Positions 26-11,893 of a DNA stretch of 11,935 bases are shown in pieces; the first letter of the stretch is position 1; each line of letters begins with the position of its first letter. The notes below the pieces were generated by a model that did no database searches, was not told where the DNA came from, and saw only the letters and a program-made list of their open reading frames with translations. The stretch is from assembly GCA_000004985.1 (NCBI GenBank), contig GG739009.1; one strand, written 5' to 3'. The position numbers and the translations under genes were made by a program. This DNA comes from Naegleria gruberi. Its lineage: Eukaryota.

Positions 26-817
26 TCAAATGGAAAAAGGCAAAAAATAAATAGGAGATGCTGAACTTTCTGATGTTATGTACATTCCAATAAATAGTAA
101 ACAAAAATATAAAGTCAAAACGCTAAACCATTTGGTAATTGAATAAATATTTTGCTGTGAAATTTGTCGATGGGCTTCTCTAAATTTAGGGTTAGGATTT
201 TTTTGCATGATTAGTTGGATAAATTGAAAAAGTGAAATTGAGGAAAGAATCTGTTCATTACTATTATCATTCGAATCGTCCACATCCAAAGGTATACTTG
301 TTTGGGAAATGAATTTGGAATTTGTTGGTGTGAGGATGATTGAGTTTCTTGTTGAGGGTGGTGGTTCATTAATTCTTGAATTTGGTGGTTGACAGGTGGA
401 TGACTTTCTAGGTGTTGAACTCACTCCAAACACACCAGTTGTTTCTGGAACAATTATTGGGGAGGGTTTTTCACCTCTCTTTGGAGAGATATCTTCAGTA
501 TTTGTTATTGAAACGTTAGTTGTCGAAGAGATGATAGGTACTGATTCCCATCTTGATATTGGTGATTTAGTTTTTGGAATGCTTCTGCTACTGGTTGAAC
601 TTGTGATTGAAGAAGGAGGTGACAATAAATTATTTGTATTTCTGTTATTACTTGTTATTTCCGATAATGAGGGAGTAGGTTTTGTATCTTCCTTAATCAA
701 CTTTTGATTTATTTGTTGTAGACTGCTATTTCCCAAGTCTCCAACCGTGGATGACGATCCGATAGAACTCGTGGTACAATTCGTTCCAGTCACGTTGTGG
801 GGTTTTAATGTACTCAT
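26..817 (-). CDS. Partial membrane protein paralogous to the N-terminal sensor region of the neighbouring hybrid histidine kinase. The ORF has an in-window stop at 26-28; it may be truncated, or may continue through an unrecognised intron beyond the window.
   Basis: 263-aa ORF that starts with ATG in an A-rich context (ttaaaaaaaATG). It has about 180 aa of S/T/N/P-rich low complexity followed by hydrophobic TM segments. The segment 'KNPNPKFREAHRQISQQNIYSITKWF...LYFCLLFIGMYITSESSASPIYFLPF' aligns with 'ENSEPKYLEAYRALSQQNLFFMTSWF...IYFVLVFLTMYKLSGCEQSLALYFATF' of the ORF at 2962-4407. 'SIILTPTNS' matches 'SIVLTPNTPNS'. The paralogue keeps its reading frame where this ORF stops. Confidence 0.55.
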   Translation of the reverse strand: MSTLKPHNVTGTNCTTSSIGSSSTVGDLGNSSLQQINQKLIKEDTKPTPSLSEITSNNRNTNNLLSPPSSITSSTSSRSIPKTKSPISRWESVPIISSTTNVSITNTEDISPKRGEKPSPIIVPETTGVFGVSSTPRKSSTCQPPNSRINEPPPSTRNSIILTPTNSKFISQTSIPLDVDDSNDNSNEQILSSISLFQFIQLIMQKNPNPKFREAHRQISQQNIYSITKWFSVLTLYFCLLFIGMYITSESSASPIYFLPFSI

Positions 818-2961: not shown

Positions 2962-3034
2962 CTACATAGGAATAATTAAAACAATTCCAAAATGTGAATT
3001 TGAATTAATTCGAACTGATACTGGTAATACATAC
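2962..3034 (-). other. Spliceosomal intron of 73 nt, phase 2, inside the H-box codons of the histidine kinase.
   Basis: Minus-strand sequence is gcaag|GTATGTattaccag...ttaattattcctatgTAG|aaatccattgcatggt. It has a canonical GTATGT donor, a pyrimidine-rich 3' end and a TAG acceptor. Splicing removes the in-frame stop of ORF 2962..4407 and rebuilds a perfect H-box, SHEAR-NPLHGIIG. Confidence 0.75.
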
Positions 3035-4407
3035 CTTGCTTCATGTGAAATATTTGCAATCATGTGAGTCTTCTCATTGCTCAAATACTTTTCCTGCATG
3101 TAAGCAAACCTTTGTTTATAATGATATCTTTTTTCTTCTGCATATATTTTTGAAAAGAACAAGCACATAATGGCTATGGAAGTCATTACTATCCCGTTGC
3201 TTACTATAGATTCTATTGGATACCCCAAAATCATCATTGGAATAAGCGAACCAGATACGAAAATTACTGTAGATATTAAGGAGGTGATAAGATGGTCTCC
3301 AAAAATATGACAAGAAATTATTAATTTGAGTATTGTCAATATATATATGGATAGCTTAGTGTAATACATTTGCATTATGAATCCATAAGAGGTTGACAGA
3401 ACTGTTCTGCATAAATGAATTACATTCTTCCTTGCCCTAGTTGGAGATTTACAGCATGTTAAATAATTCAGATAAAGATTACTAAAAACCTCCACTGCAA
3501 AAGTTGCAAAGTACAGAGCTAGAGATTGTTCGCATCCTGAAAGCTTGTACATTGTTAAAAATACTAAAACGAAATATATCCCAAAATACCTAAACCAAGA
3601 GGTCATAAAGAATAGGTTTTGTTGAGAAAGAGCCCTATAAGCCTCTAAATATTTAGGTTCTGAGTTTTCCTTGAGTATTCCAATTTTTAAAAATATAAAG
3701 AATGGTACTGATTCCAGTATTGGGTTAATTTCTGATTCGTCTGTTTCAATATTGACATTAGATACCGAGTTAGGAGTATTTGGTGTTAAAACAATTGATG
3801 CTAATGAGGGCGATTCTAGATTTTTGGGCTGGTGATCTATTTTTGTTTGTCCTCTCTTATCGTTAGATTGTTTGTTCATTTCAACTTTTGTGTAAGTTGT
3901 TTTGTTAGAGTTTTGAAAAAGAGAATTTCTCGAATTTTGAAAAGTTAGTTTGTTTTTCTGCATTTTCTCTTTTTCCTGATCCTTAGTTTTTGGTAATATT
4001 GGAATTAAGTTACTTTTTGATGATGGAAATAAATAATTAGTTGTTGGCATTGACAGGCTGGCTGTTCTCGTTCCTCGATTTTCAAGAGACCTTTTATCAT
4101 CAATATTCCTCCTATTTTTAATGATATCATCCACAACGAGAGTACTTGTTGTTGGCATCTTTGTAGTATTACTTCCACAATCAATGTTCGGAACAGCAAG
4201 AGTAGATGCTGCAGATAATTCATCATTATTCTTCACCTCCGTGATTAGATTTTCCTTCATGTTAGAAATAGAATCGCTCGCTTGTTGCTGTGGGGGACTA
4301 GCATTGATAGTTAAAGTGTTAAACCCAACACCACTATCCTGATTAGTACGTACTTTACCTCCAACAAATGATGATTGGTCATCGAGTTCACTTTTATCTT
4401 GTGGCAT
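3035..4407 (-). CDS. Hybrid histidine kinase exon 1: a low-complexity N-terminus, a polytopic TM sensor-like region of about 6 helices, and the first half of the H-box.
   Basis: ATG at 4407 in the context tttttaaaaaATG, with an in-frame TAA immediately upstream. The first ~235 aa are S/T/N/K/Q-rich. Hydrophobic segments follow: FFIFLKIGIL, FRYFGIYFVLVFLTMY, LALYFATFAVEVF, LSIYILTILKLIISCHIF, ITSLISTVIFVSGSLIPMMILGY and IVMTSIAIMCLFF. The exon ends '...KTHMIANISHEA' at the GTATGT donor. Confidence 0.75.
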
Positions 4408-10107: not shown

Positions 10108-10566
10108 TTAACCACCTCTCAATCTCAATACTAAATGCACAGTTGAATCCTTTTGAAGATTGTAATCACCAATAGTTCTTCCATCTTCCAATTGCTTACC
10201 GGCATAAATCAATCGTTGTTGATCTGAAGGAATACCTTCCTTATCAAATATCTTTTGTTTCATATTCTCAACAGTATCATTCGATTCCATTTCAATAGTG
10301 ATTGTCTTTCCAGTTAAAGTTTTTACAAAAAGTTGCATTCCTCCTCTTAATCTCAACACCAAATGAAGAGTTGAATCTTTTTGAATGTTGTAATCATTAA
10401 TAGTTCTGCCATCTTCCAATTGTTTCCCAGCAAAGATGAGTCTTTGTTGATCTGGTGAAATTCCTTCCTTATCTTGTACTTTTCTTTTCACGTTTTCAAT
10501 TGAATCATTAGATTCAACCTCCAAAGTGATAGTTCTTCCAGTGAGTGTCTTGACAAATAATTGCAT
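10108..10566 (-). CDS. Diverged di-ubiquitin (polyubiquitin-like): two 76-aa ubiquitin repeats, each ending LRLRGG, with no extra residue after the final GG before the TAA stop.
   Basis: 152 aa = 2 x 76. Repeat 1 is 65/76 identical to canonical eukaryotic ubiquitin (I3L K11R S20N T22S D24E S28R I30V P38S L56I S57N E64D). Repeat 2 is about 60/76 identical. K6, K27, K29, K33, K48 and K63 are kept, and so are L8, I44, V70 and the GG terminus. The two repeats differ from each other at about 14 positions. Confidence 0.9.
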
Positions 10567-11318: not shown

Positions 11319-11726
11319 TTACATCTTTTTCGATTTGGTAATCTTCTTAGTTGTGGTGTTCGATTGTTGTTTAGCTCTCTTTTCAATTGAATTTTTCGAA
11401 GATCTTTTCACTGAAATTTGTTTACCATTTAAATTTGCATGATGATAATCAATATTATTACGATGTCTAGTTCCACTTATAATATTAGAAGTATCAATAT
11501 CAAATAATGGTAATCTTTTAGATAAATCAATTGGTTTAGATCTTGTCCATTGTGTTTTAGTTGGAATTCTATCTTCGGAAGAATTTGAAGAATTTGATGA
11601 AGCATTTCTAGCTGGAAATAAATAACTGTTGATCGGATGATGAAATTTCCCCAACAAAACAAAATAACAATAAGAAAATGGTCTCAACAAGAAGAAATAT
11701 GTATAATTCCTCCAATAACACTTCAC
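11319..11726 (-). CDS. Small S/N/K-rich basic protein, member 1 of an inverted paralogue pair. Its true 5' end is uncertain because the first ~16 codons overlap the start of the plus-strand paralogue.
   Basis: The C-terminal 100 aa, 'ARNASSNSSNSSED...LPLFDIDTSNIISGTRHRNNIDYHH...VKRSSKNSIEKRAKQ...', align with the plus-strand ORF 'RRNMYNSSNNTSQF...ISLDNIVGGTRKRNLIDYKT...SKSQSHNTLEMRNKQ'. A strong acceptor-like 'ttatttatttccag' precedes 'ARNASS' at about 11625-11612, so the hydrophobic N-terminal extension may be spurious. Confidence 0.4.
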   Translation of the reverse strand: MKCYWRNYTYFFLLRPFSYCYFVLLGKFHHPINSYLFPARNASSNSSNSSEDRIPTKTQWTRSKPIDLSKRLPLFDIDTSNIISGTRHRNNIDYHHANLNGKQISVKRSSKNSIEKRAKQQSNTTTKKITKSKKM

Positions 11727-11893
11727 AATTTATTTCCGAAATTTCTCTGGATAATATTGTGGGTGGAACAAGAAAAAGAAATTTAATTGATTACAAAACA
11801 TTGAATTCTATTGGAAGTGAAACAAGCAAAACTTCCAAATCTCAATCACATAATACTTTAGAAATGAGAAACAAACAATTCAAAAAGTGGTAA
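11678..11893 (+). CDS. Small S/N/K-rich basic protein, member 2 of the inverted paralogue pair.
   Basis: 71-aa ORF with a good start context (aagaaaATGg) and a TAA stop at 11891-11893. It shares the motifs RN..NSSN..S, D.NI.GTR(K/H)RN.IDY and SK.S...E.R.KQ with the minus-strand ORF. The DNA identity across the motif is roughly 70%. Confidence 0.45.
   Translation: MVSTRRNMYNSSNNTSQFISEISLDNIVGGTRKRNLIDYKTLNSIGSETSKTSKSQSHNTLEMRNKQFKKW

Follow-up and report, generated by a model that had tools for sequence, protein, structure and literature searches.

At one end of a small Naegleria gruberi scaffold, two divergently oriented open reading frames (ORFs) had been called with overlapping 5' ends, which raises the question of whether both are genes, how they are related, what their products may do, and how their starts could share the same DNA. 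The window (the whole stretch of DNA that was analysed) was the complete scaffold of 11,935 bp, with ~30% G+C and two long N runs. As called, the ORFs were 11319..11726 on the minus strand and 11678..11893 on the plus strand, with a shared stretch of 49 bp; the scaffold ended only 42 bp past the plus gene. The minus gene corresponded to NCBI XP_002668573.1, which is recorded as 'predicted protein, partial' (the self-match P0001). No Rfam RNA family was found in the window. Features of the locus, and the spacing of the start codons at homologous loci, are given in Table 1.

Table 1. Features of the divergent gene pair in the window, and start codon spacing at homologous loci
Feature	Position	Strand	Description
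Minus-strand CHZ gene, 5'-truncated	11319..11615	-	Codon 2 (CCA) to stop; 98 codons + TAA; no start codon
Block C, minus protein: SSKNSIEKRAKQ	11367..11402	-	Alignment A3; start of predicted C-terminal helix, residues 77-92
CHZ motif, minus protein: FDIDTSNIISGTRHRNNIDY	11445..11504	-	Pfam PF09649, above cut-off
Block A, minus protein: TQWTRSKPIDLSKRLP	11508..11555	-	Conserved in the family; missing from the plus paralogue (alignments A1, A3)
Deletion junction	11615..11616		Homologues TGG/CAT (codon 2, then start, minus strand); window TGG/AAATAAATAAC
Leader/proximal promoter segment left, contains GGATGATGAAATTTCCCCAACAAAACAAAATAAC	11616..11677	+	Now precedes the plus gene
Non-coding 5' extension of the called minus ORF, GTG start	11616..11726	-	No in-frame ATG; homologues diverge completely 5' of codon 2
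Plus-strand CHZ-type gene, intact	11678..11893	+	71 codons + TAA; orthologue P0005, 67% identical
CHZ motif, plus protein: SEISLDNIVGGTRKRNLIDY	11735..11794	+	Pfam PF09649, below cut-off; homology to minus family
Block C, plus protein: QSHNTLEMRNKQ	11843..11878	+	Alignments A3, A4
L003, ENA metagenome contig, both 5' ends visible			232 bp between start codons; 238-nt span with both start codons
L005, ENA metagenome contig			237 bp between start codons; 243-nt span, CAT through ATG
L007, Logan assembly of SRR15442749			179 bp between start codons
L008, N. fowleri			250 bp between start codons
L009, ENA metagenome contig			254 bp between start codons

As far as sequence evidence can show, both ORFs are real genes. 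For the minus gene, dN/dS was 0.19-0.25 against L003, L004 and L005 (0.22 against L004), and for the plus gene it was 0.21-0.27 against L005 and L006; between L005 and L006 themselves, the plus gene had accumulated 7 synonymous and 0 nonsynonymous changes. Ratios of ~0.2 indicate that both genes are under purifying selection. Intact plus-type ORFs with the pattern MV(S/C)TR...SE(I/V)S..NI..GTR.R...NY...SHNTLEMRNK were present in L005, L006, L007, N. fowleri L008 and L009, and the indels among Naegleria plus-type ORFs were multiples of three. The product of the plus ORF had no exact entry in the protein collection, a homology search with it returned no N. gruberi protein, and the N. fowleri orthologue (L008, 4529-4750, minus strand) was absent from the called genes. 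With no entry in the protein sets searched for either species, the plus gene appears to be an unannotated conserved small gene. This same absence is what could be said for one or both ORFs having arisen by chance in AT-rich DNA; against the dN/dS of both genes, the 7:0 ratio of changes and the orthologous ORFs kept intact across Naegleria with in-frame indels, such an origin is hardly credible.

The two ORFs were compared with each other at the protein and DNA levels, and the comparisons indicate that they are homologous paralogues. The minus and plus products had 45% identity over 47 aa (BLASTP, E=1e-8). Their Smith-Waterman score was 85, and shuffles of the plus peptide scored 32.8 +/- 5.6 on average, with a maximum of 65; because 0/5000 shuffles reached the observed score, the similarity is not due to the S/N/K-rich composition of the proteins. 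A plus-family profile (six sequences) was matched to a minus-family profile (fourteen) by hhalign at 98.2% (E=5e-14), over the motif and block C, and all three motif groups named in the sequence-only reading were collinear between the two proteins (alignment A1). A reading made from the sequence only had noticed collinear motifs shared by the two divergent ORFs, and the BLASTP match, the shuffle test and alignment A1 agree with it. In the DNA, a 42-nt inverted repeat was found over the CHZ codons (11446-11487 and 11752-11793; 74% complementary). The axis of symmetry, which had been put near 11690, was placed by the repeat arms (midpoint 11619.5) and by the two gene starts (midpoint ~11647) near 11620-11647 instead. 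Concerted evolution by gene conversion was also considered, since L005 and L008 have arms of 30-42 nt that are 83% complementary, but it was left aside because the proteins cluster by paralogue and not by species.

The head-to-head orientation of the two genes was kept across species, with 179-254 bp between the ATGs at five further loci, and the inverted duplication is therefore older than the diversification of the Naegleria lineages sampled. That the duplication is ancient had been proposed from the motifs, and the identical head-to-head pair in N. fowleri (L008), L007, L009 and L005 argues for it. These loci show that the layout, with ~180-255 bp between the starts, existed before N. gruberi and N. 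fowleri diverged. The 40-60 nt lying 5' of each ATG were themselves imperfect inverted repeats (…ATGAAAAT..C.AACAAAAC…), and inverted-repeat leaders of this kind were seen in L003, L007 and L008. Central intergenic strings were common to the gruberi-group loci (TTTTCCAC…TTTTTGGTGGATTTTC), and an intergenic GTGGAAT was common to L007 and L008. With the layout and some intergenic elements conserved, divergent transcription from common intergenic DNA is plausible, and the two genes would then use one bidirectional promoter.

At the locus in the window, the apparent overlap was traced to a missing start codon. Homologues of the minus gene (P0002-P0004, L005, N. fowleri P0006, L007 and L009) have an ATG right at the site, with no intron; their proteins begin MPARN..., and the ATG-CCA falls at the position matching window 11615/11616. 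Identity to the homologous loci ended exactly there (…GCTGG/CAT… versus …GCTGG/AAATAAATAAC… in the window, the slash marking the junction). From minus codon 2 to the plus ATG the window had 62 bp, compared with ~180-255 bp elsewhere. Over its full length this 62-bp remnant aligned with the L004 minus-gene leader in reverse complement, at 83% over 64 nt, with a score of 68 compared with 16 to 46 for the other orientation or other loci; L004 is the closest relative, and is itself without a plus-side leader. The alignments indicate that a rearrangement on the contig removed the minus ATG, the minus leader and the central intergenic DNA (~175 bp), and that one leader was left, in front of the plus gene. 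A simple deletion of ~175 bp would fit, if the two leaders were near-identical inverted repeats in this lineage; inversion of a segment with deletion of the remainder would also fit. The ORF overlap is an artefact, because the minus start region has been lost and the called ORF reads through into the leader and 5' end of the plus gene. The 49-bp overlap of the starts, as claimed in the sequence-only reading, is thus correct for the ORFs as called but does not hold for coding sequence, since 11616-11726 is a GTG-started read-through and the homologues start at 11615/11616.

The same reading had offered decay of the minus copy as one way out of the overlap, and a copy without its ATG and promoter-proximal DNA fits that description. 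The rest of the minus coding sequence had no stop, no frameshift and no other sign of coding decay; because it is undamaged, the event would be either recent or heterozygous or, with less likelihood, an artefact of assembly. NAEGRDRAFT_69990 (P0004), a copy with 90% identity that has its ATG, was located in the same genome, on a scaffold of 379,849 bp. We infer that the minus copy on the contig is a recent null allele or a young pseudogene. Two metagenome pattern scans, for more gruberi-group alleles or for the junction, returned no match.

Similar lesions were seen in relatives. In L006, minus codons ~1-17 and the leader were gone, through a 92-bp deletion relative to L005; in L004, the plus-side leader and ~140 bp of the 5' end of the plus gene were gone, and the 3' remnant of the plus gene (68 bp) matched the window at 98.5% identity. 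Of the seven loci at which the pair is seen, three (the window, L004 and L006, with low-coverage metagenome contigs among them) had therefore suffered an independent 5' deletion of one partner. The recurrence hints that the divergent promoter region is unstable, that the paralogues are redundant, or both.

Other accounts of the junction were weighed against a rearrangement. The overlap had been explained beforehand by a short 5' intron, with the minus gene intact and an upstream exon spliced to the acceptor-like 'ttatttatttccag' at 11616-11629. An AG-terminated, pyrimidine-rich string does stand exactly at the 5' edge of the conserved coding sequence, and the coding part is without decay; however, the homologues have their ATG at this very site and no intron, and ttatttatttccag is a chance product of the junction, where GGAAATAAATA, a leader element conserved in L004, abuts the conserved codons CCA GCT. 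The search for an upstream exon gave just two first exons with an ATG...GT structure in a compatible phase; both were trivial, at 2 and 4 codons, and lay antisense to the constrained plus gene in one case and at the contig end in the other. The intron was accordingly dropped as very improbable. An assembly or cloning artefact at 11615/11616, with a true locus that is intact and has ~240 bp of intergenic DNA, deserves more weight but is still unlikely. The contig is small, has long N runs and stops just past the plus gene, the minus coding sequence is intact, and the locus has inverted-repeat leaders; inverted-repeat structures are unstable in clones. Here, though, the inverted arms, at 71-86%, are too short and imperfect for a strong hairpin, independent 5' deletions lie in the same promoter region in two unrelated short-read metagenome contigs (L006 and L004), and the gene was annotated by NCBI/JGI as partial on the identical sequence. 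Loss of the minus start by a rearrangement in the genome is the reading that we carry forward.

The motif shared by the two proteins was matched to the CHZ motif of histone chaperones. In the sequence-only reading, the GTR+RN+IDY motif had not been recognised as any known family; the Pfam HMM and the PDB profile matches identified it as the Pfam CHZ domain PF09649. Against this HMM ('Histone chaperone domain CHZ', gathering cut-off 23.3 bits), the minus ORF scored 27.2 bits (E=2.7e-6), and 28.5 bits in a second run, and the motif alone scored 27.7 bits; PF09649 was already assigned to P0001, P0002 and P0004 in the public collection. The plus ORF scored 16.0 bits (E=0.008) and 18.5 bits (E=0.0014), under the cut-off. 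When a profile of the shared module (alignment A3) was searched against 177,635 PDB sequences, the best three matches were 6ae8_C (E=0.025) and 2jss_B (0.036), both yeast Chz1, and 6m2m_M (0.15), rice OsChz1; these E-values (0.025-0.15) are weak because the motif is short (~20 residues). The minus CHZ motif aligns to 'EIDTSNIITSGRRTRGKVIDY' of Chz1 in PDB entries 6ae8 and 2jss, and the A3 alignment to the PDB CHZ segment, with the same weak E-values, set 'aeidekNIvsGTRrRknvNY' against 'AEIDTSNIITSGRRTRGKVIDY'. Single-sequence phmmer searches of either peptide against PDB gave no relevant match, and only the family profile reached Chz1. When a profile built from the untrimmed alignment A2 was searched against PDB, a single fusion protein dominated the matches through its Ras domain, and that profile was set aside. 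Literature searches with the gene identifiers, and with Naegleria and Chz1, found no matching publication. In Chz1, HIRIP3 and plant Chz1, the CHZ motif is the indispensable core for binding of H2A.Z-H2B or H2A-H2B dimers, and it sits on the H2B alphaC helix and extends to the H2A alpha2 helix (PMC6544321, PMC10854748). The fungal proteins owe their H2A.Z specificity to flanking elements and to a DEF/Y motif at the C-terminus (PMC6544321).

An exhaustive profile search for further family members covered 1.84 billion representative proteins and yielded 26 matches at E<=0.001. All of the named matches were from Heterolobosea (N. fowleri FDP41_002142, three from Willaertia magna, one from Acrasis kona, and N. 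gruberi NAEGRDRAFT_45318), and the remainder were environmental sequences without names. Alignment A3 resolved the family into block A, (E)W-x-R-S-x-P-x-D-x-S-K-R; block B, the CHZ core; and block C, S-x-N-T-L-E-x-R-x-K. The plus family was without block A. Members were either 70-150 aa long, or 287-488 aa, with an acidic run and a conserved C-terminal domain after the module. The proteins of the window were 8.2 and 11.3 kDa, with pI 10.3 and 10.9, 35-39% S+T+N and no acidic tract. The overall ranges for charge were pI 9.5-11.1, with 11-23 K+R versus 5-9 D+E. An AlphaFold2 model of low confidence (pLDDT 59.5, pTM 0.17) was mostly unstructured, with one C-terminal helix (residues 77-92) from block C.

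Taken as a whole, the locus is probably a conserved divergent pair of genes for basic, mostly disordered CHZ mini-proteins, in which the contig copy of the minus gene is start-truncated. The proteins would use the CHZ core to bind H2A-H2B or H2A.Z-H2B; the core would lie, as in Chz1, on the H2B alphaC helix and reach the H2A alpha2 helix. Since they are basic and have no acidic shielding regions, they may more likely be binders or escorts at the surface of the dimer or nucleosome than classical acidic chaperones. It is possible, if rather unlikely, that the CHZ-like stretch is a mere basic nuclear-localisation or nucleic-acid-binding patch, and that these are small basic nuclear, nucleolar or RNA/DNA-binding proteins that do not bind H2A-H2B. 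The pI of 10-11 and the absence of acidic tracts would suit that role, the plus ORF is under the Pfam cut-off, the PDB matches are weak, and the best-conserved residues beyond the motif, those of blocks A and C, are without a counterpart in Chz1. A basic patch would not, however, account for the minus protein being above the curated Pfam cut-off, for agreement with Chz1 at the non-basic D-x-S-N-I-I and I-D-Y positions as well, or for all of the best three profile matches among the PDB sequences being CHZ proteins; the longer heterolobosean paralogues, moreover, pair the module with acidic runs, as a chaperone would. We would give a still smaller chance to a bolder proposal, by which the proteins form an undescribed three-block class so far found only in Heterolobosea, the CHZ core serves as a docking peptide for the surface of the nucleosome (H2B alphaC, acidic patch), much as HMGN, LANA and the 53BP1 UDR do, rather than as an acidic chaperone of free dimers, the CHZ core and the metazoan UDR are related peptides, and the recurrent 5' deletions reflect an unstable inverted-repeat promoter together with redundancy.

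On the preferred reading, a divergent pair of CHZ mini-protein genes, the CHZ family itself is known; what would be new is the unannotated conserved paralogue, the conserved divergent pair, and a CHZ mini-protein variant so far only in Heterolobosea. The plus ORF could be added to the protein sets of both N. gruberi and N. fowleri. On the contig, the model of the minus gene should be flagged as a 5'-truncated copy rather than just as 'partial'. The heterolobosean mini-proteins would provide a minimal natural system for the CHZ core alone, without acidic chaperone regions. The puzzling ORF overlap is accounted for without an intron, and current understanding is not overturned.

Several known systems can be set beside the pair. 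Divergent histone gene pairs, which have a shared promoter, resemble it, in that paralogous or linked chromatin genes diverge across a short conserved intergenic region. They differ in that the Naegleria products are not histones, and in that here the intergenic DNA is 62 bp and one partner is without a start codon. The fourth PDB match of the A3 module profile was the 53BP1 UDR peptide (5kgf_L, E=0.15). Its 'ADISLDNLVEGKRKRR' (5KGF chain L) is identical at 10/14 positions to 'SEISLDNIVGGTRKRN' of the plus ORF, and the UDR follows the surface of the nucleosome close to H2B as an extended coil and then forms a helix in contact with the acidic patch; unlike the CHZ core, it is without the I-D-Y end. 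The likeness is marginal: the UDR peptide gave no match to Pfam CHZ, and the UDR was not reached by phmmer with the single sequence. We treat it as a lead only.

Chz1 (S. cerevisiae YER030W, a chaperone of H2A.Z-H2B; 2JSS, 6AE8) has in common with the Naegleria proteins the core D/E-I-D/S-x-x-N-I-I/V-x-G-x-R-x-R-x-x-I-D/N-Y, and both are disordered chains with short helices (for Naegleria, in a model of low confidence). Chz1 also has a DEF/Y motif at its C-terminus and, on the flanks, acidic and other elements that contact H2A.Z G98/A57 (PMC6544321), none of which is found in the strongly basic Naegleria proteins; a check of the window proteins for features of the fungal Chz1 subfamily found no D/E run, no DEF/Y and no acidic character, with 5-7 D+E versus 12-21 K+R and pI 10.3-10.9. 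Conversely, two further blocks, W-x-R-S-x-P-x-D-x-S-K-R and S-x-N-T-L-E-x-R-x-K, are conserved in the Naegleria proteins (71-99 aa) and missing from Chz1. HIRIP3 of mammals, and AtChz1 and OsChz1 of plants, are CHZ chaperones of H2A-H2B without H2A.Z specificity or the fungal specificity elements, and in this group an 'extended CHZ' region adjoining the motif adds to binding (PMC10854748, PMC6544321). They are long proteins with glutamate-rich and serine-rich regions, whereas the Naegleria pair are basic mini-proteins with little beyond the module. Acidic regions help known CHZ proteins to shield histones, but the Naegleria proteins are basic, and the functional analogy is perhaps incomplete. 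Closer to hand are the longer heterolobosean paralogues (NAEGRDRAFT_45318, 347 aa; W. magna KAL9642586 and KAL9644325; Acrasis kona KAL0483377), which have the same three-block module at the N-terminus, with block A degenerate. They differ from the window proteins in their acidic run and conserved C-terminal domain, and one is fused to a Ras-like GTPase. These paralogues look more like conventional chaperones, and the genes of the window are stripped-down derivatives or relatives.

A third independent 5' deletion at the promoter region of the divergent pair was identified in L006, a metagenome contig with a related locus. Relative to 206-297 of the metagenome contig L005, L006 (95-135) carries a 92-bp deletion that takes out the minus-gene leader, the ATG and the first ~17 codons. 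The plus proteins of L005 and L006 were identical, with 7 synonymous differences between the contigs. On L004, a further metagenome contig, the lesion was reciprocal to that of the window, and the partner affected was the plus gene. Only the final 68 bp of this gene were left (98.5% identity to window 11818-11885), directly abutting the central intergenic DNA. Missing from L004 were ~140 bp of plus-gene coding sequence, with the CHZ motif among them, as well as the plus-side leader; the minus gene was intact with its ATG present.

Features located in the window and at related loci.
Feature	Location	Strand	Remarks
L004 locus	L004 1-240	minus-gene sense orientation	ENA ERZ929261 contig
Intergenic strings common to gruberi-group loci	L003 95-170, L004 69-161, L005 335-400
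L009 minus-type gene	L009 708-974	(-)	block C lost in frame
Plus-type ORF, 73 aa (MVCTRSNKGYNNYSSEISMDNIVVGTRQRKQFNY…SHNTLEMRNKTFRK)	L008 4529-4750	(-)	N. fowleri VFQX01000028.1
Two tandem genes	window 26-817, 944-1480, 2567-2954, 2962-4407	all (-)
Ubiquitin gene	window 10108-10566	(-)	two units, differing from each other

The intergenic strings of the gruberi-group loci read ATTTTCCAC…TTTATGAT…TTTTTGGTGGATTTTC and contain a small palindrome, GTGGA-TTT-TCCAC. A GTGGAAT core was also found in L007 (Logan assembly) and L008 (N. fowleri). Judged by sequence, strings and core are a candidate shared promoter element, which the window copy lacks wholly.

In the minus-type protein of the metagenome contig L009, …VKRSS is followed directly by SKITKSRKMKK at the loss of block C (S-x-N-T-L-E-x-R-x-K), where N. 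fowleri reads …VKRSSKNTLEKRSMSSSSKITKSRKMKK. As this loss is in frame, block C may be dispensable, or the L009 copy may also be decaying. Within residues 79-116 of P0004 (NAEGRDRAFT_69990, the N. gruberi copy on the 380-kb scaffold), divergence starts after …NSIEKR, and the tail beyond is unrelated and hydrophobic (TKCKYPKFVNKK…LLCLRQ); a frameshift or a wrongly predicted splice site in the gene model is the probable cause. The N. fowleri plus-type ORF lies head to head with FDP41_002142, the minus-type protein, and is probably an unannotated gene, because it had no counterpart among the called genes of VFQX01000028.1.

The two tandem genes of the window are likely hybrid histidine kinases. 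Their S/T/N-rich N-terminal and transmembrane regions are paralogous (…KFREAHRQISQQNIYSITKWF… vs. …KYLEAYRALSQQNLFFMTSWF…), and in one gene a response-regulator receiver domain (Pfam, 6e-18) follows on the far side of an N gap. The ubiquitin protein (152 aa) had identical copies on an ERZ929261 metagenome contig, from the sample of L004, and in NCBI assembly GCA_006365155.1.

The CHZ-containing module was N-terminal in longer heterolobosean proteins (P0010, P0017, P0021, P0023, P0025/P0032, P0029 and P0030), where it precedes an acidic run as well as a conserved domain of ~120 aa at the C-terminus that has no Pfam match. In P0021 (Willaertia), a fusion to a Ras-family GTPase domain was also present (Pfam, 5e-18). 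From sequence comparison, the ubiquitin-dependent recruitment motif (UDR) of 53BP1 is a possible but unproven relative of the CHZ core. The UDR peptide had no match to Pfam CHZ, and the profile E-value of the PDB 5kgf_L match was 0.15; aligned with the plus ORF at window 11738-11779 (+), 'SEISLDNIVGGTRKRN', the UDR peptide 'ADISLDNLVEGKRKRR' was identical at 10/14 residues.
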